DNA of 54,932 nt from a virus (Duplodnaviria > Heunggongvirae > Uroviricota > Caudoviricetes). The DNA lies in IMG/VR virus record IMGVR_UViG_2939147180_000006, positions 1 through 54,932 of that record. One strand, given 5' to 3'. Of this stretch, positions 3,589-17,923 are shown one piece after another (the stretch's first letter is position 1; every line of letters begins with the position of its first letter). The notes under the pieces were generated by a model, which saw only the letters and a program-made list of their open reading frames with translations, ran no database searches and was not told where the DNA came from. The position numbers were made by a program, and so were the translations under genes.

Positions 3589-6500
3589 TTAGTCGTGTGA
3601 TTCTTCCCATTTATCCCACGTACCGTTACAACGTCCAATTAATATAGTGGGGCAACATAACTGTATTTGTGTTATATCAACCGTGGTTGGCGGCGTATAT
3701 ATCTCGATGACAACATCAACAATCTGATCTGTTACACTGTCTCTACCACAAACAAACATACCGTTGGATTGTTCATTGCCAAATTTTTTCGCATCAAGCA
3801 CTTTCACTCCGTTGATAAATGCGTTTATGTACGAACTGGATAGTAACCCTGTTAATCTTGCCTGGAATAATACGTTTTTATAGGTTCCTTCTGTTGTAGA
3901 GTCAATAAAGCGATAACAAAATCTTGCTACCCTGTAAGTAGTATTAGGTACTTTGCTACTATCAGGGAAAACGTGCATTGCTACAATGTCACCAATGAAT
4001 CTGTTGGCGCGTACAGTTCCTGTAAATGTACCGCTGTCCGCATGTATTTCACCCCTTACAACAACGTTGTTAAATTCTGATGCGCCGCTTTGTGTTATCC
4101 TCCAACCACTGGAACCAGGGACGAAGTTTGCTGATTTAATTTCATTAACAATTTTAGCCATAGTAATGGAGGCATCTGCAATTTTAGCCGTCCCTATTGA
4201 CGCATCCTTAATAAACGCCTCTTTCACATACATTGCGCCGTTAGTGACATAGAATGGCGATGTATATGAACCGTTTGCTGCGGTCATTAACACGAAACGG
4301 TCAACAAGGAAAATACACTGCGACTGAAAGTTAGTGCCGTCACCAGTAAGGCCAAGCGACATACCTGCTGCGTATTTTACGCCATTGCTATCTGTGGCGA
4401 GCTTGATTGAATATGTCGCATCAACATTACCCTTAAAGTCGGTTAATGCTTTCGATGTCGTCTCTATTGCCGTCTTATTCCCGTTAACGGTCACTGTTAA
4501 CTGATCAATTTTCGTTGACAACGCCTCGTCTGCCGTAGCCATTGTCTGCGACCATTCTGTAATACTTGCGTTTACTGATTCGAAAGACGCTGAGATCTGG
4601 CTAAATTTTTCTGCGCTTGATGTTTCATGCGTAGAGAGCGCCGTTGACACTTCAGATACTTTTGAGTTGATTGTGCTGGTAAGCGATGCGCTAAGGCCGC
4701 TTATTGCGTCTGCGCGTGCTTTTGTTTCATCGGCGATGGCTTTGTCCATCCTGGTGACGTTGCTTGTCACTTTATTATCAAGCGTGCTGACACTTGCGCT
4801 AACTTCGCTGATAGCTTGTCCTCTGGCGCTTGTTTCGTCAGCAATTGCCTGATCAAGGCGGTTAACGCTTGCTTCGGTTTTCTTATCAAGGTCGGTGATC
4901 GATGCGCTTACCCCGCTAATGGCTTCCGCTGTCGCTTTTTTCTCTTCAGCAATAACGTTGTCAATACGGTCAATTTGCGCGTTTGTTTCTCTGCGGCCTT
5001 TCTTGTATTGGGCCGTAAGAGTAACTCGCGTGTTGGTTTGAGCGATTGAGTTATTGATAAGTGCAATAGATGCGTTTTGCAGGCTTGCTTTTGCCTGATT
5101 TATTTCGTCGCTGTTTTTGCCAACATTATTTTCAACAGCGCCAAGATTTGCGCTGAGGCCTGATATTGCTTGTGCACGGGCGCTTGATTCATCGGCAATT
5201 GCCTGATCAAGACGTTTAACGCTGGCGTTTGTGTTGTTCTCAAGCGTTGTTAAGTCTGCTTTAACCTCTGTTATTGCGTCGCTTCTTGCCTTCGTTTCGT
5301 CTGATATTGCTTTATCAAGGCGGGAAACGCTGGCGTCAGTTTTCTTGTCAAGGGTGTCTATCGACGCCTTCACGCCGCTGATGGCCTGTGCGCGTGCGCT
5401 GGCCTCGTCAGCGATGGCCTGGTCGAGTCTGTTCACCTCTGATTCAGTGTTGCTTTCAAGCGTGCTGATGCTTGCATTAACGCTGCTGATAGCGTCAGTG
5501 CGCGCCTTAGTTTCGTCTGCAATCGCTTTATCAAGGCGGCTAACGTTACTTGTAACCTTGCCGTCGAGTGCGGAAATTGACGCATTCACACCGTTGATGG
5601 CTTCGGTTCTCGCGCTTGTTTCATCCGCAATGGCTTTATCAAGGCGGCTTATGCTTGAATCGGTTTTCTTGTCGAGCGCTGATACTGAGGCATTTACCCC
5701 GCTAATAGCTTCGCTGCGTGCGCTTGTTTCGTCAGCAATAGCTTTATCCAGGCGTTTAACGCTGGCGTCAGTTCTCTTATCAAGTACCGAGATACTTGCG
5801 TTAACGTCACTGACCGCCTGTGTGCGGGCGTTCGTTTCATCTGCAATAGCCTGATCAAGCCTATTGACGCTGGCATCCGTTTTCTTGTCGAGATTGCTTA
5901 TTGAGGCGTTCACACCGTTAATAGCTTCAGCGCGGGCACTAGCCTCGTCAGCCACTGCGCGTTCCACACTGGAGATCTGACCTTTAAGGTTGGAATCCAT
6001 CGCGTTCATTTCTGCCGTGATGGTTTTCAGTGATTCAGCCGTTGCTTTTTTCTCTTCAGCGATAACGTTGTCAATACGGTCAATTTCCGCTTTCGTTTCC
6101 GTTCTGCCTTTTTTGTACTGGGCGGTAAGGGTAACGCGCGTGTTTGTCTGTGCAAGCGAGTTGTTGATAAGCGCCAATGACGCGTTTTGCAGGCTTGCTT
6201 TTGCTTGCTCCAGTTCACTGCCAACTTTTTCGCTGGACACTTCTAATAGGTCAATCCTGGACTCATGCTGACCAATATCATCGGCGTTTTCCTTAACTTT
6301 TTTGTAAAGATCTTCCGTTTCTTTTTTAAGTGTATCGGTGTCAGCTTTTATTGTTCCTGTTTCTGTGATCAGGTTGTCAGTGTCAGTTCTTAAATCTTCG
6401 GTTATGTTGGTCAGGTTGTCGGTTTCAGTTCTTAAATCGTCAGTTATGTTGGTCAGGTTATCAGTTGCAGTTTTGAGGTTGTCGGTCGCTGTTTTTAGTT

Positions 6501-9030
6501 CATTTGTAGCATTTTCAATAACATCCGTGCGATCGCCAAGATCTTTGATGTCACCAATCATTTCCTTGAACTGTTCTGAGTTCATCACGTCTTTGGTGAC
6601 GTAATCGCTGATTTCATCAAAATTCTCTGTCGGCTTACCTGATGCCTCCACAAAGTCAGACACGCCAAAAGCATTGCGTGTGCGCACATAAACGTAATAG
6701 GTGTGGCCCGTGTTCATGCCGCCAAACGTCCACTGATGACCACGCCCAGTATATTGTGCCTTAGTGGTTACTGATGCCGGATCGGTGATCTGCGTTTCAC
6801 CTGAGTAATAAAACTCGTAACTTGTATCAGTGGTAAGCGTTGTTCTGCTGATTGGGTAAACTGTAGCCTGAAATACACCGGGAACCCAATTAACTCCTAC
6901 CGGGGCCGCTGGTGCGCCAATAACCAGATCCACAATGCTTTCCGCGCCCTTCATGCCTGTGTCATTTCTGCCACGAATGCCTAATGAGTAATTGCCAGCA
7001 TCAATACCATAAAAATCATAACTGTAATTCGTAGTCTCGTAGCTTTTAACTACGGCCCCATCTGAATTATATACGCGGATTTCAAAGGTCAGGCGATGAG
7101 TTGTCGTCAGTGTTTCCCATGTTGCGCGGCATTGAACTGTTTCAGATCCAATGTTTAACACCTTCAGGTTTTCAATGTTCGGCACGCGGAAGTGATTAAG
7201 TGTGTCGTTGTTGACCTCAAAGATTGCGCCAGTATCTACTACAGCCTGTTTGTGAGGGTCATGCTGTGATGCCTCTATAGTGTACACGCTGTTATTTTCT
7301 GTTTCTGCTACACTGGTGATTCTACACAATACTGGTTTTGCTGCGCTAGTTGACACCGCAAATACAGTACCGTTACGAATCCATGCCGGGGCTGATGCAA
7401 GGGTAATTTTATTTCCGCTAACTCCGGTGATCTGGTGTTTTTTAAATTTGCCATCACTATCAAGCAAGCTAATGGTGTCGCCAGGGGCGATATATTCAGA
7501 ATCAACCTTATCGACAGTGATAACCCTGCCATTGTTTGCCACGATACGACCGCCTAGACGAGCGCCAGAGCGGTTATTGTCGAGTATCTCGATAATATCA
7601 CCGGGGGTGAAGTGAATTGCGTCACGGGCCATTTTAAACGTGAATTTAGACGGCTCGCGTTTTGCTGTTTCTATCAGCCATTTGCCAGCGCGGTACGCTT
7701 GCCCGCGTGACGTGCATCCGAACGCCTCCAACGTGGTTTCGTTATAACCATCGCGGGCGATTAGTTCATCATCCGCCACGTATTCTTTTGATTGCTCCCA
7801 GCCGTTTTCCGGGTCAGTCCATGATACGATCACGGCGTTGTAACACTCTGCAAGCGGAAGACTTGAGCGAGTAAACGCGCCATCAACGACGTTTGCGTTT
7901 GTGATGGTGGCAATTGGATCCTGTGGCGCATCAATCATCACGGTAAGGCGTTGCCCGTCCCATAACGCGATACCACGGAACATACCTGCGATGTTATCCA
8001 GTAGGTCGCGGGCGCTCATTTGCTCCGTAATGTAAGCGTTGAGAGTCATGCGAGGTTCAAGGCCACCATAGCCATCATCAACCAACTGATCGCAGTATTG
8101 AGAAAGCACATACAAAGCGCCATCATCAACATCAATGTAACCAGCATGTCGAGCAAGCCCGAAGCGCTCGTTTTTAACCAGATACCGGAAAATCCACGCA
8201 GGGTTATTGGTGTACGCTTTTTTGAATCCACCAAGCCATAAACCCGAATATGTGCGCGTTTCTGTGTTGTAGTTATCAGGAACATCAACAATCAGGCCGC
8301 GAAGGTGATAGGTACGGGTGGGTGTATCAGTATACTGATCATGGTCAATTACAGCGCCAGCTACAGCGGTATGAGGATAAGACAGATTATCATCTATTAT
8401 TTCGCTGTAACTACTCCACCGCGTATCATTTCGCAATAGATCGCTGTTGCTGTCTGCTGTTATGCGACGCACGCGAATATCAAACGGTTTTTCATTGGGC
8501 GCGTCTATGACATGAGCTTCCAGATACTCACCACTCTGTTTGCCTGGCCCAATAGTAATAATTTTAATTTGCGACCACGTAGAAGATGATGACGGTTTAA
8601 CATCAACCATCAACATAACGGACGTATTGTATTGATTGCCCTTATCATCTGACTGAACGAGAGCATCAACACCAAGATTCAACCTGACGCGGGTAACGTT
8701 TGGATCTGAAACAGTCCTGATTATTGGTGTGTCGTGAGTTACCTTTGCGTTGACAATAACGGTTGATTCGATGGCATTAAAACCATTAATCGGCGATTGG
8801 TCAGCCGTGCCGTTGCGCCAGGCTATACTAATCCCCGGGATTGATGTATTCCCGTTTGCGTCAGTAACAGGCGTGCCATTAAGCATCACATCATTTAGTG
8901 GCGCTTTCTGGTTTACAGGACCGTATATTGGCCCTTCGCTGAGAATATCTAAAACACGATAAAACTGTTTATGATACAGGTTATCGTTTAATAATACTGG
9001 TGTTTTGGCTTTGCCGCCGCCGCTACTCAT
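3589..9030 (-). CDS. J: Tail tip / host specificity protein J homolog with expanded central coiled-coil repeat region
   Basis: 1813 aa; N-terminal and core segments (WSSYSEIID, YHLRGLIVDVPDNY..YSGLW, NPAWIFRYL) resemble lambda J; position after I/K/L. Confidence 0.85.
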   Translation of the reverse strand: MSSGGGKAKTPVLLNDNLYHKQFYRVLDILSEGPIYGPVNQKAPLNDVMLNGTPVTDANGNTSIPGISIAWRNGTADQSPINGFNAIESTVIVNAKVTHDTPIIRTVSDPNVTRVRLNLGVDALVQSDDKGNQYNTSVMLMVDVKPSSSSTWSQIKIITIGPGKQSGEYLEAHVIDAPNEKPFDIRVRRITADSNSDLLRNDTRWSSYSEIIDDNLSYPHTAVAGAVIDHDQYTDTPTRTYHLRGLIVDVPDNYNTETRTYSGLWLGGFKKAYTNNPAWIFRYLVKNERFGLARHAGYIDVDDGALYVLSQYCDQLVDDGYGGLEPRMTLNAYITEQMSARDLLDNIAGMFRGIALWDGQRLTVMIDAPQDPIATITNANVVDGAFTRSSLPLAECYNAVIVSWTDPENGWEQSKEYVADDELIARDGYNETTLEAFGCTSRGQAYRAGKWLIETAKREPSKFTFKMARDAIHFTPGDIIEILDNNRSGARLGGRIVANNGRVITVDKVDSEYIAPGDTISLLDSDGKFKKHQITGVSGNKITLASAPAWIRNGTVFAVSTSAAKPVLCRITSVAETENNSVYTIEASQHDPHKQAVVDTGAIFEVNNDTLNHFRVPNIENLKVLNIGSETVQCRATWETLTTTHRLTFEIRVYNSDGAVVKSYETTNYSYDFYGIDAGNYSLGIRGRNDTGMKGAESIVDLVIGAPAAPVGVNWVPGVFQATVYPISRTTLTTDTSYEFYYSGETQITDPASVTTKAQYTGRGHQWTFGGMNTGHTYYVYVRTRNAFGVSDFVEASGKPTENFDEISDYVTKDVMNSEQFKEMIGDIKDLGDRTDVIENATNELKTATDNLKTATDNLTNITDDLRTETDNLTNITEDLRTDTDNLITETGTIKADTDTLKKETEDLYKKVKENADDIGQHESRIDLLEVSSEKVGSELEQAKASLQNASLALINNSLAQTNTRVTLTAQYKKGRTETKAEIDRIDNVIAEEKKATAESLKTITAEMNAMDSNLKGQISSVERAVADEASARAEAINGVNASISNLDKKTDASVNRLDQAIADETNARTQAVSDVNASISVLDKRTDASVKRLDKAIADETSARSEAISGVNASVSALDKKTDSSISRLDKAIADETSARTEAINGVNASISALDGKVTSNVSRLDKAIADETKARTDAISSVNASISTLESNTESEVNRLDQAIADEASARAQAISGVKASIDTLDKKTDASVSRLDKAISDETKARSDAITEVKADLTTLENNTNASVKRLDQAIADESSARAQAISGLSANLGAVENNVGKNSDEINQAKASLQNASIALINNSIAQTNTRVTLTAQYKKGRRETNAQIDRIDNVIAEEKKATAEAISGVSASITDLDKKTEASVNRLDQAIADETSARGQAISEVSASVSTLDNKVTSNVTRMDKAIADETKARADAISGLSASLTSTINSKVSEVSTALSTHETSSAEKFSQISASFESVNASITEWSQTMATADEALSTKIDQLTVTVNGNKTAIETTSKALTDFKGNVDATYSIKLATDSNGVKYAAGMSLGLTGDGTNFQSQCIFLVDRFVLMTAANGSYTSPFYVTNGAMYVKEAFIKDASIGTAKIADASITMAKIVNEIKSANFVPGSSGWRITQSGASEFNNVVVRGEIHADSGTFTGTVRANRFIGDIVAMHVFPDSSKVPNTTYRVARFCYRFIDSTTEGTYKNVLFQARLTGLLSSSYINAFINGVKVLDAKKFGNEQSNGMFVCGRDSVTDQIVDVVIEIYTPPTTVDITQIQLCCPTILIGRCNGTWDKWEESHD
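4690..5960. repeat. About 10 copies of a ~108-bp (36-aa) coding repeat inside J, plus a ~180-bp duplication (approx 4890-5070 vs 6040-6220)
   Basis: Protein repeat AIADETSARxxAIxGVNASISxLDKKTDASVxRLDK iterated; DNA lines visibly periodic; boundaries approximate. Confidence 0.7.
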
Positions 9031-9574: not shown

Positions 9575-10254
9575 TTGTCAGATCTCCATATTGAATTGGT
9601 CTGTCGAACATACGCGGGCCGCATTTGCTCGCGGCGGCTTAACAGTCCGGCATTGTCATGATGTAAAACAGTGTTATCGCCCAGGTAAATCATCGCGTGG
9701 CATGGATCTGCACCCTTAAACGGCTGGCGAACAATCACATCACCAGGCTGAATACTTTGCGCGTCAACCATGAAAAACCCGTTCAATGGCAGGTTTTTTA
9801 TGTACAGGTTTTCTCCACGCAGCCACCACCCATCGTGGCGCTCAAAGTCCGGTAGATCCACGCCGCAAAGGTGATAGGCGTCACGAAAAAGCGAGTAGCA
9901 ATCTGTTTTCCCGTGTTCAAATTTACGGCCTAACAGGTGCGCTACCGGGCGGAATTTTCTTACCCTGCCACCGGAACATAAAAACCACGGTAGGCCGGAA
10001 ATAACCTGCTGTTGTCGATCCCGTGCTGACAATACCAATGAATCGTTAGTATGTGAGTGAAAAACGGCTGTTATAACGCCTAATTCGTCAGCTTTGATAT
10101 AATCGTCAGGCGAGATTTTAAAGCTGTTGTGCGGCGTTTCAGACACGTTTAAACACGGGTAAAAATAATCGTTATCTATCACCAGCCCGCATACTTCCTC
10201 GTCAGGGTGGGCCGCTGCATAGCGAATCATTTTATCTTCAATCGCCATAATCAA
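9517..10254 (-). CDS. K: Tail assembly protein K homolog (JAB/MPN plus NlpC/P60-like)
   Basis: 245 aa; EEVCGLV...HSHTNDS JAMM-like motif; position between L and I. Confidence 0.8.
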   Translation of the reverse strand: MIMAIEDKMIRYAAAHPDEEVCGLVIDNDYFYPCLNVSETPHNSFKISPDDYIKADELGVITAVFHSHTNDSLVLSARDRQQQVISGLPWFLCSGGRVRKFRPVAHLLGRKFEHGKTDCYSLFRDAYHLCGVDLPDFERHDGWWLRGENLYIKNLPLNGFFMVDAQSIQPGDVIVRQPFKGADPCHAMIYLGDNTVLHHDNAGLLSRREQMRPAYVRQTNSIWRSDKCSNLDLRAIFEDITARCV

Positions 10255-10955
10255 CCCACCTTGCTGGATCCTGGGAAACAGGAAATTGGTAACGGATTAG
10301 GACGCGGAAAACGCAAACGGCAACCGCTTAGGCGGTGGCTGCATTTATCCAGCTTCGGATCACTGGTTGGATCGTCTTTGTCAGTAGCTACGGGGCCGCC
10401 ACTGTATCTGCAACCGTCGCCGCGATATTGCCACTGGCAAACGTCAGCGAGAATTGTGCGCCCAGGGATAACCGCTTTATCTGCATCAATTGGCGTTGAC
10501 AGTTCATATTGCACCTGGTCCGCTGTTTCTTCGCTCATCGCTTCAACGACGTAAAAAGATACAGCCTCAATAGATGGATCCGCATCTGGATTGCCGTTAG
10601 GGAAATTAACAGCATCCAGGTATTTTACTTCCACCTGGCGGCGCGTAACTTTCATTCCTCGCAGGTCGTTGAAATCGTTATTCATCCCCGTAATGAGTCC
10701 GCCAATGTTGGCAACAACCATCTGCGGGCGAGAATAAACCCCCTCGTTTTTCATTTCGAAGCCAGTTGCCTCAATCGGGTAGCTGTTGTAGGTAACACCC
10801 TTCCAGATAACCGGGCCGTAATAGCCATTCGCGCCGGAATGGAAGCGGATAACCTCGCCACCAAGGGGCGTGAGGTCTAATTCAAACAAGTCAATTACCG
10901 CGCCGACTCCGGCATCGACGGAATCAATAATCATTTCTGTAGGTATGCTGCGCAT
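10251..10955 (-). CDS. L: Minor tail protein L homolog
   Basis: 234 aa; segments TGFEMKNEGVYSRPQMVVANIGG and VTRRQVEVKYLDAVNFPNGN resemble lambda L; C-terminal Cys cluster. Confidence 0.8.
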   Translation of the reverse strand: MRSIPTEMIIDSVDAGVGAVIDLFELDLTPLGGEVIRFHSGANGYYGPVIWKGVTYNSYPIEATGFEMKNEGVYSRPQMVVANIGGLITGMNNDFNDLRGMKVTRRQVEVKYLDAVNFPNGNPDADPSIEAVSFYVVEAMSEETADQVQYELSTPIDADKAVIPGRTILADVCQWQYRGDGCRYSGGPVATDKDDPTSDPKLDKCSHRLSGCRLRFPRPNPLPISCFPGSSKVG

Positions 10956-11083
10956 TTTTTCACCTTGTCATTTTGTGATCGCCGTCACGATAAATCATAC
11001 CAAAACGGTTGATCGCGATTTTTACAATATGTATATTGTACTCAAAAGGAAGCATGGTTAACAAAATGGCGCGGAGGTGTGAA

Positions 11084-11239
11084 ATGGATGATAAGGTGTG
11101 GATGTTGAAGGTGTTCCTTACGGATGGCAGGGAAATGACTGTGGCCCAGTATAAAGATGAAGGCGAGGCACTTGCCGACGCGCTATTGCTCGCTGAAGAC
11201 GAACGCGTTTTGGGGTACAGGATCGAACCTGTCAAATGA
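11084..11239 (+). CDS. Hypothetical small acidic protein (51 aa), first gene of opposite-strand moron operon
   Basis: GGAGG RBS 6 nt upstream of ATG at 11084; table ORF 11009..11239 trimmed to RBS-supported start. Confidence 0.45.
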   Translation: MDDKVWMLKVFLTDGREMTVAQYKDEGEALADALLLAEDERVLGYRIEPVK

Positions 11240-11251
11240 GAGGTTAACGAA

Positions 11252-11602
11252 ATGCAAAAATATAGTTTAGAGGTATGGACTGATAAATGTGAATGGGAAC
11301 GCATGGGCCTGTTTGACACATATGATGCTGCGCGTGACGAAGGTCGTGAATTACTTCGCTGTTGGTCTAACGCTCGTGATTTTGTTATTACTCCTGTACC
11401 AGTGCCGGATAAGGTGGAAGACATGAACCCGAAAGATATTAACTTTAACGTCAATGTTGATTTTGCTGATTCTATGGATCAGTCTTGCCCTGGTGAAATA
11501 CACGCAAAAGGTTTCCCGGCTGACGATCCAGAAGCAAAACGCGAATACGTAAAAGCGGCGAAAGATTTCTGCATAGATAACCTGGGCGCATTCGATAAAT
11601 AA
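11252..11602 (+). CDS. Hypothetical acidic protein (116 aa), moron operon
   Basis: ORF with GAGAGG RBS; 12-nt spacing from upstream gene; no recognisable motif. Confidence 0.5.
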   Translation: MQKYSLEVWTDKCEWERMGLFDTYDAARDEGRELLRCWSNARDFVITPVPVPDKVEDMNPKDINFNVNVDFADSMDQSCPGEIHAKGFPADDPEAKREYVKAAKDFCIDNLGAFDK

Positions 11603-11611
11603 GGCGGCAAC

Positions 11612-11875
11612 ATGGGGAGGAGCAATCACGGCGATTATGTGTACACGTTGAAACAGGCCGCCCGCCTCGTCGGTTATCATGAACACGAATTTATTGATTT
11701 GCTGATTGAGCGCGGGATACTGTACCAGGTCTGTTTAACACTGTACCCAAAAGCGAAATACCTACAGGAAAAGTTATTCATCATCATGACGGATGAAAAC
11801 CAGGTAAATCATTCATTCGTTACTGATAAAGGCGTCAATTATCTGCGTGATAACTTACAGGACTGTATATGTTAA
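11612..11875 (+). CDS. Hypothetical protein (87 aa) with possible HTH segment
   Basis: ORF 9 nt after previous stop; segment YTLKQAARLVGYHEHEFIDLLIERGIL looks helix-turn-helix-like (inference). Confidence 0.45.
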   Translation: MGRSNHGDYVYTLKQAARLVGYHEHEFIDLLIERGILYQVCLTLYPKAKYLQEKLFIIMTDENQVNHSFVTDKGVNYLRDNLQDCIC

Positions 11876-12072
11876 AGTACGACGGTCAAAAAATGGTTAG
11901 GTTTACAGGTTTTGCTAAAGGTAACAATAGAGAATTAACAGAATATTACAGTTTAAATATTGGTGACGTTTACCGCGTGGAAATATGTCTGCCTTCAATT
12001 AATTCTTTAATAATTATAAATAAAGAAAATCAAGGCGTGCTTGTTACATTTAACGAAGTGGAGTTACCTTAA
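11869..12072 (+). CDS. Hypothetical protein (67 aa), moron operon
   Basis: ORF overlapping previous stop by 7 nt (coupled). Confidence 0.4.
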   Translation: MLKYDGQKMVRFTGFAKGNNRELTEYYSLNIGDVYRVEICLPSINSLIIINKENQGVLVTFNEVELP

Positions 12073-12162
12073 TCAATAAAGCGACGAAGTGATTGAAAAT
12101 GTTTTGGTAGTGGCTGGCGCGATTGCCATCGTTTATGCCTTTACGAGTTAATGGGGTGAATC

Positions 12163-12300
12163 ATGAAAGTCGAAGTTTTAGCACTAATTGCAATGGGCTT
12201 GATCGTCTTCGGTGTTCACGCTGCTGGTTGGGACTGGGCGGCAATAGCAAACAACATGGCGCACGCTCACCCAATGAGTTTGCTGTATATTCACTACTAA
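12163..12300 (+). CDS. Small hydrophobic membrane peptide (45 aa)
   Basis: Manually translated: MKVEVLALIAMGLIVFGVHAAGWDWAAIANNMAHAHPMSLLYIHY; below the track size cutoff; followed directly by terminator. Confidence 0.4.
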   Translation: MKVEVLALIAMGLIVFGVHAAGWDWAAIANNMAHAHPMSLLYIHY

Positions 12301-12304
12301 CAAG

Positions 12305-12334
12305 AAAAACCCCGCGCGAAGCGGGGTTGTTTTT
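12305..12334 (+). terminator. Rho-independent terminator (bidirectional) ending the L-M moron operon
   Basis: ccccgc-gcgaa-gcgggg hairpin followed by TTGTTTTT; A-run on the other side. Confidence 0.65.
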
Positions 12335-12530
12335 ATGCGCCATCAATCAGAAATAAAACTTCCTTCCCTTCCCTGGATCTGCACCCAACGTACCCATCGC
12401 CAACGTCGTGTAAATACCATATATCGCCGTTGTCAGCTTTTACAGTAAGGTCGTTGATCTCATAGTCGTCAAACAATGTAAAAGCGTCAGTTTTGTCAAC
12501 TACACAAGTCCCGTACATATCAACCCCCAT
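12333..12530 (-). CDS. Hypothetical protein (65 aa) immediately downstream of M
   Basis: ORF start overlaps M stop; no counterpart in lambda at this position. Confidence 0.35.
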   Translation of the reverse strand: MGVDMYGTCVVDKTDAFTLFDDYEINDLTVKADNGDIWYLHDVGDGYVGCRSREGKEVLFLIDGA

Positions 12531-12883
12531 TAGCCGACAACTTGCTCAAATGTTGCGTTTAGCGTGTATACAGGCCCATCTTTGGTCATGCTCCAGCTAC
12601 GGCAAACAAAAAGCCTTTGCACGTTATCCATTGATGGCGACCAGTAAAAAGCCTCGACAGCGCCGCGCGCCCTCAAGAATGCTTCTGCCTGGATCGCCAC
12701 GTTCCCTCCATCACCACATCCCGCGCTACTGCCTTTAAAAACCAGGGTGTAGCTATCAAGTAATGTGTTGATACCTTTTGCCTGCCTTTGCTCATAACCA
12801 TCACCAAGTTTAACGACTGACACATTTGGTTCCCTGGTCACGCTGTAGCTTCTTTGCGGCGTCCATCTGAAAACTTCCGGCAT
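12530..12883 (-). CDS. M: Minor tail protein M homolog
   Basis: 117 aa; FRW...LGDGYEQRQ...FEQVV resemble lambda M. Confidence 0.7.
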   Translation of the reverse strand: MPEVFRWTPQRSYSVTREPNVSVVKLGDGYEQRQAKGINTLLDSYTLVFKGSSAGCGDGGNVAIQAEAFLRARGAVEAFYWSPSMDNVQRLFVCRSWSMTKDGPVYTLNATFEQVVG

Positions 12884-13053
12884 GATTCCCCCTATAAGTT
12901 ACATATTGCATACATCTTTACGCGCTTCTACGCGAAAAATGAGAACTTTGTCACAAGAATTATACCCAGTTTACGAAATGGCTTCACACATGACGTGCCA
13001 AGTTGTATATAGAAATCAAGAAGAGAGAGCAGTACAAGCAAAGGAGGTCAAAT

Positions 13054-13209
13054 ATGGAACGCTATGTGGTTGTAATGCTGAACAAAGCATTCGAACAGGT
13101 GGAAGTTGCGATTGTGAAGGGATTTGATGATGCATTCAAATACGGTCAATTCATGATGAATGCAAAAGAAGATGAATACCGTGATTTCTTCCTGAAAGTG
13201 GTCAACTGA
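13054..13209 (+). CDS. Hypothetical protein (51 aa), second moron operon
   Basis: AAGGAGG RBS upstream of ATG at 13054 (table ORF 13003..13209 trimmed). Confidence 0.45.
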   Translation: MERYVVVMLNKAFEQVEVAIVKGFDDAFKYGQFMMNAKEDEYRDFFLKVVN

Positions 13210-13229
13210 TTGATTGCGTGGGGTGAGTT

Positions 13230-13484
13230 ATGAAATTGGTGGCGATTGGCAAAAACCTGAAAGCACAGAAAAACGCCCAGGACCGGATAATCAAAAAGGG
13301 CAAGTCTTTATTAAATGCTTTCCTGAAAAAAGAGGCCAACCCCAAAAAATTACGCGATGGCTACGGTTATAAATTTGACATCAACCCCGATTGGCGGTTA
13401 TTCAGCGAAGATTTAAAGATGTGGTTAATTATTGACCATCTGGAATACAACCGCCACTGTGGAGTAAAAGGGGCACATAAATGA
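13230..13484 (+). CDS. Hypothetical basic protein (84 aa)
   Basis: ORF with GGGGTGAG RBS; lysine-rich. Confidence 0.45.
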   Translation: MKLVAIGKNLKAQKNAQDRIIKKGKSLLNAFLKKEANPKKLRDGYGYKFDINPDWRLFSEDLKMWLIIDHLEYNRHCGVKGAHK

Positions 13485-13603
13485 GGTGAAATATGGATGA
13501 CGATAAATTCACCTGGAGGGATATCTGGAACATCTGGCAGGTGATGTTTGCTCGCAGCTATATAGCAAGAAACGGAAGATTGTGATTTGCGGAGGAAAAT
13601 AAA

Positions 13604-13780
13604 ATGAAAAACCCGGCAAATAAAAGCAATGTAAAACGTATGGCATGGATCGTAAAATGGATGGATAGCAAAGGCGAGACATACAAAGAACCGTTTTTCA
13701 GATACACAGATGCCGTATTCGCAAGAAGTGTAAGAGGAGGGAAAATTGAAAGAGGATATACAAGTTTTGAGAATAACTAA
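13604..13780 (+). CDS. Hypothetical protein (58 aa)
   Basis: Manually translated MKNPANKSNVKRMAWIVKWMDSKGETYKEPFF...; GGAGG RBS 8 nt upstream; followed by terminator. Confidence 0.4.
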   Translation: MKNPANKSNVKRMAWIVKWMDSKGETYKEPFFRYTDAVFARSVRGGKIERGYTSFENN

Positions 13781-13785
13781 AAGAT

Positions 13786-13810
13786 AACCCCGGCATTGTA
13801 CCGGGGTTTT
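13786..13810 (+). terminator. Rho-independent terminator (bidirectional) between moron 2 and tape measure gene end
   Basis: aaccccgg-cattgta-ccggggtttt hairpin with T-run. Confidence 0.6.
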
Positions 13811-13812
13811 GT

Positions 13813-16161
13813 TTATTTGCGGCGCGGTTGCAACATTCCTCCCGGTCGTTGCGATTCCCTTGCCATCATTTTCATTGCTACGCGTTCCATCGTCTGTTCA
13901 AGTCTGCGACTGTCTTCGTCACTAAATCCGTTTGTGGTCTGTACGGTGATGTTAACAGGCATATTGATGCCGCCACCATTGAAGAGATCACGGCCAGGAA
14001 TTACTCTACCATTCTCGCCGGGAATCATATACTGACGCCCGTTGCTCGTCTGGAATAGTTCCGGGATCCCGTGCTCACCTACGCGATACAGACTTCCACC
14101 ATTCACAGAACCACCATTATAACGCCCGCCGCCAAAAATTGATGTTGCCAGCGACATGATCGCAGAAAGTGCCGCAGCACCAGCCGCAGCCCAGCTACCA
14201 CCAGTTGACGCAGCCGTTGCAGCCGCAGCCGGGGCCGCCGCAGCCGCAATCTGGCCTTGCGCCGCCACAGCGCCAGCAGTTGTACTTGCCTGGGTAGCCT
14301 TGCTTTGCGTTTCCATCATCAATTGATCTGCTATCCAGTTAGCGGCAATCTCTGATAGTTTGTTACCAACGGTATTGAGGATACTGCTTCCCAGGTTGGC
14401 GAAAACCTCGCTTAATGATTGAGTACCGTTTAACAGGCCGGTGAGCGCATTACCCATGCCACCTTTTAGGCCACTAACACAAGCACCAATCAGGCCGTTT
14501 GTGTCGCTTTGTGCCTGCCATTGTTCCCATTTCAGATCTCGGATCTGTTGTTCGTATTCCAATTGCGCCTGTCTCTGTTGCGCCTCTGTAGCGCCCAGGT
14601 CCAATAGCATTTGTTTTCTTACAGCCCATTCATTTTGCGCCTGCTTGATTGGGTCAATTTCGCCCTTAAGCTGGTCCATCGGGCTAACTATGTGGTCCCA
14701 TTTGTCGCGTAGCTCATCAACGGGGATTTGCGCCAATTCGTCCTTCAGTTCCTTTCCTATCCCTTTCTGCGCGGCCTTGTACTCAAGGAGGGTTATTTTG
14801 CCCTGGGCGAATGCAGCATCAATGGCCTTGCCGTTCTCTAATGCTTTGCGCATAGCGGCGGCGTCCTTGTTGTATTGGTCAGATACGTTTATGCCTTCAT
14901 CGCCAAGCCGATCAGCTTCAGATTTCTTGTCTTTTTTGCCATTTTTCCCTTTTTTGGGCTTACCAACTGGCTGATCGAATCCTGTAATCTTGCCGTCGTC
15001 AGCCTCACCCTGTTTCTGCATGAACTCGTCATAGGCTGCTGTGGCTTTTTCTATGTCATTCTTGAATGTCATAAATTTGCCAATGGTGGGGCCGAATTTC
15101 TTTTCGTTGTTGCTGTTTAGCTCTTCCTTGCGCTTGTCAATGATCTCCTTCATCCATTTGTAGCCATCCATTAGCGCTTTGATTGGCGTCACCATTCTGA
15201 TGATTTCTTCCGCCACCTCACCCGCCTTAATAGCAACATCGTCAAACATGTCGATGAACTCACTACCAGCGGTTTTCAGTGTATTGAAACAGGTTGCGGC
15301 GAATTTTGCGCCTTTACCTAACCCCTCAACGCCACCAGTGATTAAGTCTATTGCTGACACAACGCCGTCAGATATGCCGAAAAGATCATCAAGCTGCTCG
15401 ACAAGTCCCATCACCTCCACTTTAAGCTCGTTAAAGGCCATGCCGGATGTGCGCGGCAACTGTGCGAACTTCTCGTTTGTTTCCTGCGTGGCGGCCTGGA
15501 TCGCGTTGAGCATCCTTTCAGCCGTGATCTTGCCGTCCAGCATTTCGGCGCGGAACTGGCCCATTGACAGCCCCATTTGGCGGGCCATTTCCTGTATGAT
15601 TGTTGGGGTATTGTCACGTATTGAGTTAAATTCTTCAGCCTGCAACACGCCAGCATCAATAGCCTGGCGGAACTGGCGCATGGAGTTTGATAGTTGTTCC
15701 GCAGACACGCCGCCCAGGTTGCCAAGTTTTTGCAGCGTGCTGACCAGGTTGAGTACCTGGCCTTCTGTGGCGGATGTGTTTTTTAGCGATATGGCAAGAC
15801 CTTGCCACAGGTCGCCAGTATCCTTAAGGCTTTGCCCTGTTTCTTTTGATATATCTTTCAGTCTGTTGAAAACACGTTCCGTGGCCTCCGCTTCACCTGT
15901 AAGCAGTTTGATTTTTACGCGAAGCATTTTAGCTTGTTCCGCCATGTCAATAAACTGGCGTACAGCCTCCGCAGCAAGTAGCAAATGGATAACCCTGGAC
16001 AGTGCTTTGATTGAAGTCTTAAGCGTGTTCACCTGGCGGTCAGCGCGTTTTGCGCCACGCTCGATGCTGTCAAAAGCCTGGTCTGCCTGTCGTTGAGCAA
16101 CGAGAAGTTGACCAGTTTTTGCATCAACTTCGTAATAAATTGTGCCTAAACTAGTTGCCAT
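13813..16161 (-). CDS. H: Tail tape measure protein (lambda H-like)
   Basis: 782 aa, coiled-coil-rich, Gly/Ala-rich segment and C-terminal GGGR...NGG region as in lambda H; position between chaperone and M. Confidence 0.8.
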   Translation of the reverse strand: MATSLGTIYYEVDAKTGQLLVAQRQADQAFDSIERGAKRADRQVNTLKTSIKALSRVIHLLLAAEAVRQFIDMAEQAKMLRVKIKLLTGEAEATERVFNRLKDISKETGQSLKDTGDLWQGLAISLKNTSATEGQVLNLVSTLQKLGNLGGVSAEQLSNSMRQFRQAIDAGVLQAEEFNSIRDNTPTIIQEMARQMGLSMGQFRAEMLDGKITAERMLNAIQAATQETNEKFAQLPRTSGMAFNELKVEVMGLVEQLDDLFGISDGVVSAIDLITGGVEGLGKGAKFAATCFNTLKTAGSEFIDMFDDVAIKAGEVAEEIIRMVTPIKALMDGYKWMKEIIDKRKEELNSNNEKKFGPTIGKFMTFKNDIEKATAAYDEFMQKQGEADDGKITGFDQPVGKPKKGKNGKKDKKSEADRLGDEGINVSDQYNKDAAAMRKALENGKAIDAAFAQGKITLLEYKAAQKGIGKELKDELAQIPVDELRDKWDHIVSPMDQLKGEIDPIKQAQNEWAVRKQMLLDLGATEAQQRQAQLEYEQQIRDLKWEQWQAQSDTNGLIGACVSGLKGGMGNALTGLLNGTQSLSEVFANLGSSILNTVGNKLSEIAANWIADQLMMETQSKATQASTTAGAVAAQGQIAAAAAPAAAATAASTGGSWAAAGAAALSAIMSLATSIFGGGRYNGGSVNGGSLYRVGEHGIPELFQTSNGRQYMIPGENGRVIPGRDLFNGGGINMPVNITVQTTNGFSDEDSRRLEQTMERVAMKMMARESQRPGGMLQPRRK

Positions 16162-16318: not shown

Positions 16319-16405
16319 ATGAAAAACTACTACCGACCCAACGAGCATGAGCGTTATACCGACTTCATCGAAGAAATGCTTAAAGCACTTAAAAATAAAA
16401 ACTAA
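16319..16405 (+). CDS. Possible small ORF (28 aa) at head of third moron operon
   Basis: AAGAGG RBS then ATG; MKNYYRPNEHERYTDFIEEMLKALKNKN; very short, uncertain. Confidence 0.25.
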   Translation: MKNYYRPNEHERYTDFIEEMLKALKNKN

Positions 16406-16417
16406 GCGGGGTGAGTT

Positions 16418-16768
16418 ATGAAACGGTTAATCAAAGCGGCGATGATGGCGGTAATGGTATGTTTAGCATTCAACGCCAACGCAGATAACAAGATTGATAA
16501 AGCGGAGCATGAATGCGCATTTGCCGCAGAAATATACGACTTAAAATACGGTGACGGTATGGGATACCTTGAGATTGTATATGACGCAGCTTGCAGGTAT
16601 AGGGCGGTAGTCCCGTTCCTTGGTGATGAAATTGCCGAAAAATTTAAACTGCACGAAAAATACAAAGATTTGGTAGACGGCATAAATGAACCTGAGCTAC
16701 TCAAAGCGGTTCGTGACGGCGAAGTTAAAGGATTCGCAATCCACCACAGAGTAAAGGCAGGCGTGTAA
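16418..16768 (+). CDS. Hypothetical secreted/periplasmic protein (116 aa) with N-terminal signal peptide
   Basis: N-terminus MKRLIKAAMMAVMVCLAFNANA has n/h/c-region signal-peptide character; RBS GGGGTGAG. Confidence 0.5.
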   Translation: MKRLIKAAMMAVMVCLAFNANADNKIDKAEHECAFAAEIYDLKYGDGMGYLEIVYDAACRYRAVVPFLGDEIAEKFKLHEKYKDLVDGINEPELLKAVRDGEVKGFAIHHRVKAGV

Positions 16769-16876
16769 ATGGAAACAATCAAAACTGTTATAGATGTATA
16801 TATTACAGCATGGTTAGCATTTAATATAATGGCTGTGCTAGTGCTGGCAATGACAACAGAAGATAAACGTAATTAA
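16769..16876 (+). CDS. Small membrane peptide (35 aa)
   Basis: TAAATG stop-start overlap with the previous gene; hydrophobic core ITAWLAFNIMAVLVLAM. Confidence 0.35.
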   Translation: METIKTVIDVYITAWLAFNIMAVLVLAMTTEDKRN

Positions 16877-16886
16877 GGAGTTCATC

Positions 16887-17189
16887 ATGGAAATGGTAAT
16901 TTTCTTTTGCGGATTCGTGGGAACTATGATTGTTGCCCAGAAAAGACATCTTAATATGCTCATGGCATTCATTGGCGCACTGATTTTTTGGCCTGCCGTA
17001 TTGATTTACGCACTGTGCGTTAACAAAAGGATGTTTAAACACTACGTCGATGCGGTGACTTTCGTAAGCATGGAGTTCCCTAACGCAACTGACGTACAGA
17101 AAGCACAGGTTGCAACTTACCTTTACGATAACGTGTACGATATTCATGACCTGGATGAGGCAAGATGCAGATTTGCAGCATACAAATAA
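16887..17189 (+). CDS. Hypothetical membrane protein (100 aa, two predicted TM segments)
   Basis: AGGAG RBS; hydrophobic segments VIFFCGFVGTMIV and LMAFIGALIFWPAVLIYAL. Confidence 0.5.
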   Translation: MEMVIFFCGFVGTMIVAQKRHLNMLMAFIGALIFWPAVLIYALCVNKRMFKHYVDAVTFVSMEFPNATDVQKAQVATYLYDNVYDIHDLDEARCRFAAYK

Positions 17190-17197
17190 AGATAAAG

Positions 17198-17222
17198 GCC
17201 CGGTTAATTCCGGGCTTTTTCT
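17198..17222 (+). terminator. Rho-independent terminator ending third moron operon
   Basis: gcccgg-ttaatt-ccgggc hairpin followed by TTTTTCTT. Confidence 0.65.
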
Positions 17223-17923
17223 TGCTCGCGTTTTTTCATCAATTCCAGCACCCTTTTAGCTGCCTCCATTTGCTCCTCATAATCACGTTTATTTATGTGA
17301 ACGCTTGGCTTACTTACCTCGTTTCTTTCGTCTGGTGGCGTTTTAGCGCGTACAGCTGCCCTGTATCCGGTCATTGTCATGCCCCACGCTTCTGACTCAG
17401 ATAACCCCAGGTGAGCAACGGCAGAATAAACAAACTCGAGGATATCAAATGTCGGCTTGTACTCGCCTTTCTGTGTTGCGCCCGTGTCCTCCTCTGGACC
17501 GTCACCAATTAAACCGTGATACATGCAGTGTTGCGCCAGTGTGATAACGTCACTGGTAGGCATCAATCCGGGTTTTAGTCTCAACTTACCCGAAGGAGTA
17601 AACCTGCATTCGCCCAATAACGGGCCTATTTCTTCCTCTGAGCAACATCTCAGTATGTGGATGGATGTTTGCACTAACTCACCATAACAACGCGCCATAA
17701 TGCGATTACGGAGGTCTGGATCCGTTGGCAAACGCTGTGGATATTTACCACCGTGCACAGTTGCGAAATATTCAACCAGTTCCCTGTCACTGCCGATTTT
17801 AGCCATTGCAGCAAAGCAGGGATTGAATACATACCGCCTGCCATTGACTACAGCCGCAAATTGTCCGGCTCGAACATGGATCATAGATGTCACCTTAAAA
17901 ATAAAGGGGCCAAACGGCCCCAA
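17204..17923 (-). CDS. Putative tail assembly chaperone (G/GT position)
   Basis: 239-aa ORF between major tail and tape measure genes; assignment by position only; true start may be internal. Confidence 0.4.
   Translation of the reverse strand: MGPFGPFIFKVTSMIHVRAGQFAAVVNGRRYVFNPCFAAMAKIGSDRELVEYFATVHGGKYPQRLPTDPDLRNRIMARCYGELVQTSIHILRCCSEEEIGPLLGECRFTPSGKLRLKPGLMPTSDVITLAQHCMYHGLIGDGPEEDTGATQKGEYKPTFDILEFVYSAVAHLGLSESEAWGMTMTGYRAAVRAKTPPDERNEVSKPSVHINKRDYEEQMEAAKRVLELMKKREQEKARN

Follow-up and report, generated by a model that had tools for sequence, protein, structure and literature searches.

The locus and its genes

The stretch of DNA considered here, referred to as the window (54,932 nucleotides (nt); IMG/VR record IMGVR_UViG_2939147180_000006), is essentially the whole genome of a temperate coliphage of the mEp021-like (mEpimmI) group. 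Its structural genes are on the minus strand. The subject of this study is a cassette of four small open reading frames (ORFs), ORF-A to ORF-D, read from the plus strand and situated between the gene for the minor tail protein M and the tape measure gene. A first-pass annotation had proposed at this place three to four plus-strand ORFs of 51, 84, about 30 and 58 amino acids (aa) with Shine–Dalgarno (SD) sequences, and both their coordinates and their sizes are right. The features of the locus are the following.

12530–12883, minus strand: minor tail protein M, the left flank, in the late operon (Pfam PF05939 Phage_min_tail, E 1e-28)
12919–12934, plus strand: direct repeat TACGCG-N4-TACGCG in the M/ORF-A intergenic region, read from the sequence
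12983–13011, plus strand: putative sigma-70-type promoter, spotted by eye (TTCACA at 12983–12988, a 17-nt spacer, TATATA at 13006–13011)
13054–13209, plus strand: ORF-A, 51 aa, acidic (isoelectric point, pI, 4.85), SD AAAGGAGG
13230–13484, plus strand: ORF-B, 84 aa, basic (pI 9.9, net charge about +10), SD GGGGTGAG, Pfam PF24732 'ParE_like'
13493–13585, plus strand: ORF-C, 30 aa, a Trp-rich small protein, SD GAGGTGA
13604–13780, plus strand: ORF-D, 58 aa, a basic small protein (pI 10.0), SD GGAGGA
13786–13808, both strands: bidirectional intrinsic-terminator hairpin, AACCCCGG-N7-CCGGGGTT, then TTGTTTATTT
13813–16161, minus strand: tape measure protein, the right flank, in the late operon (Pfam PF20155 TMP_3, E 1.4e-49)

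The window was compared with ten related loci (mEp010, mEp013, mEp021, mEp515, mEp554, MagusPhagus and E. coli prophages). The frames of A, C and D are unbroken wherever the gene is present, and ORF-B is intact in nine loci and frameshifted in one, Ecol_244. The ratio of non-synonymous to synonymous polymorphism (pN/pS), pooled over 7–11 loci, is 0.07 for A, 0.22 for B, 0.10 for C (nine loci) and 0.19 for D. Given the SD sequences, the intact frames and these low ratios, the four ORFs are real genes. One could still suggest that these are chance ORFs in a non-coding part of the late operon, a spacer or a terminator region, as they are very short (30–84 aa) and only one of the four has a function in the databases. 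However, the frames are kept in relatives through many synonymous and few non-synonymous changes, all four ORFs have an SD sequence, B belongs to a curated Pfam family, and homologs of B, C and D occur at 49–58% identity in an unrelated phage. As far as comparison of sequences goes, this explanation is effectively refuted, and we regard it as almost certainly wrong.

The database matches of the individual proteins are scarce, and NCBIfam and PADLOC give none for any of the four. ORF-A matches phrog_29810, a family of unknown function, and has no match in Pfam, NCBIfam, PADLOC or PDB. Its 60 homolog clusters are nearly all full-length and 76–100% identical, with a few truncated or partial members, and none of them has a Pfam domain. 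By these searches ORF-A appears to be an orphan restricted to mEpimmI-type phages, and it is the most conserved gene of the cassette. In GenBank and metagenome annotations it is called as 68 or 89 aa, from an upstream TTG or other codons (L001 4056–4325; L005 3056–3325; P0042–P0053). These extensions are not conserved: the relatives carry indels of 1 and 2 nt directly upstream of the ORF-A ATG, which rule out the longer versions, and hence the 51-aa ORF preceded by the SD sequence is the likely product. ORF-D yields only sub-threshold family matches (Phage_ORF5, E 0.04; phrog_1670, E 0.03).

The cassette ends on the plus strand at the hairpin, which the terminator scan calls on both strands. 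Its folding energy is −15.3 kcal/mol on the plus strand (z −2.7) and −16.8 kcal/mol on the minus strand (z −3.7), and it is situated 5 nt past the stop codon of the tape measure gene (13813–13815), so that the hairpin does abut the 3′ end of that gene, as first described. The equivalent site carries a terminator annotation in the GenBank records of mEp010 and mEp554. At the other end, the TACGCG repeat is almost invariant in 11 aligned relatives and is a possible operator, bound by a regulator acting on the cassette or on M. TTCAC and TGTATA are kept in all 11 and also in the loci lacking ORF-A, and a leader with TTCACA-17-TATATA and the repeat precedes the first cassette gene in all mEpimmI-type loci. 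The G+C content of the cassette is 40.4%, versus 50–51% in M, L and the tape measure gene. An Rfam search of positions 10900–14000 found no RNA family.

An insertion hotspot with variable cargo

The cassette DNA matches seven GenBank phages, each of them a member of the mEpimmI group. Among 5,426 complete E. coli genomes 33 match, and the identical 33 are retrieved when the query is lengthened to take in M and the adjoining end of the tape measure gene. IMG/VR loci were gathered by anchoring on M, which yielded 80 loci, 30 with M at least 84% identical and 50 with M 66–70% identical. In all 30 loci of the first set the gap between the tape measure gene and M is filled and has a length of 684–1396 nt. 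In about 20 of the 50 loci of the second set the gap is just 2–17 nt, that is, the site is empty, and many loci of this set contain unrelated inserts of 300–500 nt on either strand. Since the site is empty in some distant tail modules and filled, or occupied by unrelated inserts, elsewhere, the tape measure/M junction is a recurrent insertion hotspot, at which the mEpimmI group has its own resident cassette. The suggestion of a moron in the sense of HK97 and lambda, an accessory cassette on the opposite strand with its own terminator, is thus borne out.

The architecture was determined for 45 mEpimmI-type loci, and more than 20 different architectures were found. The commonest is A-B alone (13 loci), followed by A-B-C-D (seven, including the window), B-C-D with or without a 59-aa ORF (three), A-B-C (two), A with a broken B (two), and A alone (one). 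Additional cargo is formed by ORFs of 49, 59/60, 61 and 95 aa; mEp515 also carries an HNH endonuclease, mEp013 a 436-aa protein and mEp021 a zinc-ribbon protein. ORF-A is an almost universal first gene, ORF-B is almost universal as well, the two occurring together in about 40 of the 45 loci, and C, D and the other genes are variable. Hence the cassette is a variable-cargo hotspot of separable small genes, not a single fixed operon. The first-pass annotation had named absence or disruption of the ORFs in close relatives as an observation that would speak against its reading. The outcome is divided: each of A, B, C and D is dispensable in some relative, but none is ever randomly decayed.

The inserts at this junction in the more distant phages (L052–L101) include a 70-aa ORF on the strand of the tail genes and opposite-strand ORFs of 79 and 132 aa. 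In one of these phages (L055) the junction harbours a 3-kb insert with several larger ORFs.

ORF-B and its predicted fold

The 84-aa product was described at the outset as very basic, which agrees with its computed pI and charge. It matches Pfam family PF24732 'ParE_like' over profile positions 2–67 of 67, with 45.6 bits at a gathering threshold of 24.4 and E 7e-12, and also matches phrog_1525; the RefSeq name is 'ParE family toxin-like protein'. A HMMER scan of 1.84 billion representatives with ORF-B gave five matches, one of them spurious (an FG-GAP repeat protein), and a profile search of genome contigs with the close ORF-B alignment gave zero.

An AlphaFold2 model built from an alignment of 28 homologs has pLDDT 88.9 and pTM 0.78 and the topology beta-beta-alpha-beta-beta-beta-alpha. 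A single-sequence model was poor, all-helical, with pLDDT 60, and was discarded. In the predicted model, the beta-alpha-beta3 core superimposes on solved RelE/ParE toxins: the scores are 5.2 for RelE3, 5.1 for YafQ and Thermus thermophilus RelE, 5.0 for a Helicobacter pylori toxin and YoeB, 4.4 for ParE2 and 4.0 for Mycobacterium tuberculosis ParE1. Foldseek retrieves the same toxin families at non-significant levels (E at least 0.29, TM 0.4–0.48). Among viral predicted structures, the model is similar to 'ParE-like toxin domain' proteins of the Yersinia phage fHe-Yen9-04 and the Klebsiella jumbo phage RaK2, with TM 0.70–0.78. It is reasonable to consider ORF-B, as modelled, a distant member of the RelE/ParE superfamily. 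A PDB sequence search with ORF-A produced nothing meaningful.

The earlier guess that ORF-B may bind nucleic acids is a reasonable one given the predicted fold, because RelE/ParE-fold proteins act on mRNA and ribosomes or on DNA gyrase; RelE, YoeB, HigB and YafQ are RNases, whereas ParE poisons gyrase. Seven residues, P38, K40, L41, G46, R56, H70 and N74, are invariant across the alignment of the PF24732 family. As the invariant Lys/Arg/His set is what an RNase would keep, we lean towards mRNA or the ribosome as the target, in the manner of RelE, YoeB and T4 RegB, with DNA gyrase, in the manner of ParE, as the alternative. An hhalign alignment of the B family with YoeB is topologically sensible but non-significant and unfit for mapping of residues.

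About ten distinct frameshifted alleles of ORF-B were observed (P0035–P0041, P0108–P0110), with breaks after residues 23–48. In the window, the region around 13330–13350 has two A6 runs (gaaaaaag and ccaaaaaatt) in this frameshift-prone stretch. The frameshifts could be true inactivation hotspots or homopolymer assembly errors.

Homologs in virulent phages and integrative elements

Distant members of PF24732 from phages and from integrative and conjugative elements (ICEs) score 40–68 bits. Members with 27–35% identity are found among small genes in the virulent Sortsnevirus, Kosakonia phage Kc237 and Klebsiella phage phiKp_21, and none of their neighbours in these three has a significant family match. 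The family is also present in the virulent Klebsiella jumbo phages phiKp_21 and RaK2 and in Yersinia phage fHe-Yen9-04.

Closer homologs of ORF-B (49–55% identity) occur in two contigs of a large lytic phage (L011 2436–5267 and L012 175–3104), whose DNA is weakly similar to Phapecoctavirus/Justusliebigvirus. Here homologs of B, C and D lie within about 2.5 kb in a run of small same-strand genes, and a homolog of ORF-A is absent. The ORF-C homolog has 37 aa and 52% identity; the ORF-D homolog has 75 aa, with 58% identity over 43 aa, and adjoins the ORF-C homolog in the order of the window. This suggests, at the level of sequence similarity, an exchange of these small genes between a temperate siphovirus and a virulent myovirus.

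In ICEs, a member of 94 aa is encoded in Proteus mirabilis ATCC 29906 (L103 2435–2719), and another one in Providencia stuartii (L104). The gene order is ParB(ICE_PFGI_1), a DUF7168-like gene (sub-threshold), DUF2857, PF24732, and a gene of the STY4528 replication protein family, with the PF24732 gene overlapping the end of the DUF2857 gene. As it is sited between the ParB and STY4528 genes, PF24732 looks like a backbone gene of the PFGI-1/SPI-7-type ICEs. Both in the virulent phages and in the ICE backbone, it is found without ORF-A and without a neighbour from a recognised antitoxin family.

These homologs bear on the possibility that ORF-A is the gene under selection, for instance as a superinfection-exclusion or regulatory peptide of the lysogen, and that B, C and D travel along with it as selfish or neutral cargo of no use to this phage. 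Indeed, A has the lowest pN/pS (0.07) and is almost universal, it forms a complete unit of putative promoter, gene and terminator by itself in one locus (L021), and the cargo downstream of it turns over freely. However, purifying selection acts on each of B, C and D (pN/pS 0.10–0.22), they are retained in the distant lytic phage, and B-C-D persists without A. Thus we find this explanation distinctly improbable.

Are ORF-A and ORF-B a toxin–antitoxin pair?

ORF-A and ORF-B might form a type II toxin–antitoxin (TA) module of the ParDE/RelBE type, in which the labile acidic A neutralises the toxin B, the role being stabilisation of the prophage or abortion of infections by other phages, with C and D as passengers. 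The layout is classical, as in all loci having both genes a small acidic gene is situated 17–20 nt upstream of a small co-oriented basic gene. ORF-B scores above the Pfam 'ParE_like' cut-off and has a predicted fold of the RelE/ParE type, A and B co-occur in most loci, A-B alone being the commonest cassette, and PF24732 genes elsewhere also follow closely coupled upstream genes, of varying family.

On the other hand, the two genes are separable. The prophage locus of E. coli UMNK88 (L017 3844–4265) and the viral contigs L043 and L044 have an intact B, with all family-invariant residues, whereas ORF-A with its SD sequence is precisely missing. The leader of A is joined to the ribosome-binding site of B (...caaagggggatgttATG), and therefore B is the first cassette gene: it directly follows the conserved leader, with the strong SD sequence AAAGGGGGA, and the surrounding tail genes are intact. 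This differs from what is expected of a TA module, where an intact toxin should never occur without the antitoxin. Conversely, L021 contains a leader–A–terminator unit with B absent. ORF-A has no antitoxin-type DNA-binding domain and no Pfam or PDB match, and PADLOC does not recognise A-B. Further, identity drops as low as 63% in B where it stays at 86–100% in A; identical A variants are found next to B alleles of different types, and the two show no co-variation. Finally, the PF24732 members of virulent phages and of the ICE backbone have neither ORF-A nor a recognised antitoxin family. Taken together, this makes a TA module unlikely.

Several related candidates were considered and rejected. 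For the loci lacking A, a small replacement ORF ahead of B was dropped, as L043 and L044 do not share its presumed start codon. An antitoxin function of ORF-C, which follows B, is not compatible with about 20 of the 45 loci, where an intact B occurs without ORF-C. An excess of broken B over broken A, predicted by TA decay, was not upheld, as truncated forms of both are rare and the frameshifts of B are possible assembly errors.

Interpretation

The explanation that we prefer, with a probability of roughly 0.55, is that the region is an autonomous moron cassette at the tape measure/M recombination hotspot of the mEpimmI phages, and that ORF-B is a solitary RelE/ParE-fold protein without a dedicated antitoxin. 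The reality of the genes, the boundaries of the cassette, its behaviour at the hotspot, the family and fold assignment of ORF-B, and the separability of A and B are directly supported by the data given above, whereas the promoter, the timing of expression and all biochemical activities are inferred.

The cassette runs counter to the late tail operon, and a weak sigma-70-type promoter of its own, about 45 nt before the start of ORF-A, probably drives it. Its transcription would stop at the bidirectional hairpin, and the late minus-strand transcription would have to pass through the same hairpin. As the hairpin is located inside the late tail operon on the minus strand, late transcription should resist termination, in keeping with the Nus-dependent antitermination that has been reported for the mEpimmI group (PMC11893012). 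Our best guess about ORF-B is that it would act on the nucleic-acid machinery of the host or of a rival phage, and ORF-C and ORF-D may be further small proteins directed at the host or at competitors. Since B, C and D occur in phages without a lysogenic state, a role in infection seems at least as likely as lysogenic conversion, candidate functions being takeover of the host, counter-defence and competition between phages. Genes as tiny as these suit anti-defence or host-modulating proteins better than defence systems.

A bolder version is that PF24732 as a whole comprises widespread antitoxin-free RelE/ParE-fold effectors manipulating host translation, mRNA or DNA topology, and that the cassette is an anti-defence or host-takeover island, with ORF-A as the leader gene and swappable effectors behind it, following a logic similar to that of anti-CRISPR loci. 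This is a tentative idea, and we hold it to be possible though doubtful.

Several observations count against the explanation that we prefer. The putative promoter TTCACA-17-TATATA is a conserved near-consensus match, which the consensus promoter scan did not call, as its −10 hexamer ends in a base other than T. PDB sequence searches with ORF-B and with two profiles of the B family linked to no solved structure, and hhalign of the B family with E. coli YoeB and RelE was non-significant (P ~0.2) and offered no basis for placing K40, R56, H70 and N74 on the catalytic sites of these toxins. None of the four proteins has a PADLOC match or is mentioned in the papers found. In Ecol_244 and L050, B is frameshifted with A intact, which is the direction of decay expected of a TA module, and the state lacking A may represent a single lineage. 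Lastly, in every context a gene of another family lies closely before the PF24732 gene or overlaps with it, and such varied upstream genes would also be the pattern of swapped antitoxins.

The mEpimmI group, its genome architecture and its terminators have been published (PMC11893012; GenBank PP180001-5, MH706966). The tape measure–M and L–M cassettes are not discussed in that paper, and neither PF24732 nor 'ParE family toxin-like protein' is mentioned in the papers found. The cassette genes are already annotated, either as hypothetical or as 'ParE family toxin-like'. This name, together with the upstream acidic gene, invites a TA call, against which the comparative data argue, so some caution is needed in annotation. 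As for use, screens of phage–host conflict could draw on the cassette as a small natural collection of interchangeable phage proteins of 30–95 aa.

Adjacent tail-gene junctions

The cassette is one of the inserts of the tail region, where the genes follow in the order J, I, K, L, M, tape measure. The relevant features are listed below.

3589–9030, minus strand: tail gene J
10251–10955, minus strand: tail gene L, Pfam-confirmed
10956–12529: L–M junction, with the plus-strand L–M cassette (ORFs at 11009–11239, 11252–11602, 11612–11875 and 11869–12072)
12333–12530, minus strand: 65-aa ORF abutting M, at the L–M junction
16319–17189, plus strand: third block, between the tape measure gene and the DUF6246 gene (17204–17923, minus strand)

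The L–M cassette is kept in all relatives and terminates at a bidirectional hairpin (12308–12328); an antirepressor domain of the KilAC/ANT type is encoded in its 87-aa ORF (Pfam ANT, E 5e-7). Both plus-strand cassettes, L–M and tape measure–M, are present in seven of seven GenBank phages, 33 of 33 E. coli prophages and 30 of 30 IMG/VR relatives. The third block encodes a 116-aa protein (16418–16768) with a signal-peptide-like N-terminus and has two further ORFs, one hydrophobic and of 35 aa, the other of 100 aa and with hydrophobic segments; none of its ORFs has a Pfam match. Hence opposite-strand inserts are found at three consecutive tail-gene junctions, and the L–M cassette, the tape measure–M cassette and the third block are standard equipment of the mEpimmI group. 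The first-pass annotation considered two adjacent morons to be unusual. This does not hold: the presence of both is the fixed architecture of the group, and the tape measure–M junction accommodates unrelated inserts in more distant phages as well.

Comparison with known systems

The moron concept reportedly comes from Juhala and Hendrix. Among lambdoid and HK97-like morons are HK97 gp15, located between tail genes, and lambda lom and bor. The cassette resembles them in consisting of extra genes between conserved late genes, with their own terminator and a probable promoter, in having a lower G+C content than the flanks, in being missing from the same junction in related modules, and in carrying variable cargo. 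Unlike these morons, it is opposite to the late operon, it contains up to four or more tiny genes instead of one, and its 5′ gene is fixed group-wide. Viewed as part of the genome, the cassette is nothing out of the ordinary, a moron hotspot in a phage group that has already been described.

With the type II TA modules (ParDE, RelBE, YefM-YoeB, PaaA2-ParE2) the A-B pair shares the spacing and the order, in which the small acidic gene comes before the small basic one. It differs from them in that B occurs without A and A without B, that A has no recognisable antitoxin domain, and that members of PF24732 in other elements are not accompanied by any recognised antitoxin family.

In family and predicted fold, ORF-B is like the PF24732/phrog_1525 proteins of Sortsnevirus, RaK2, phiKp_21, fHe-Yen9-04 and the PFGI-1/SPI-7-type ICEs, which belong to the same hidden Markov model family and are likewise small, solitary and located on mobile elements. 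However, ORF-B resides in a tail-region moron of a temperate phage, whereas the others are found in small same-strand gene arrays or in the replication/partition module of ICEs.

T4 RegB is an antitoxin-free endoribonuclease of a virulent phage, with a RelE/YoeB-like fold, acting on mRNA. Its sequence relation to ORF-B is undetectable and it is about twice as long, yet it provides a precedent for a stand-alone phage effector with a RelE/YoeB-like fold. The only, mild, surprise is that in virulent phages, temperate phages and ICEs alike a protein with a toxin fold behaves as a solitary gene, and the PF24732 family could reveal that mobile elements employ the RelE/ParE fold in a stand-alone manner.

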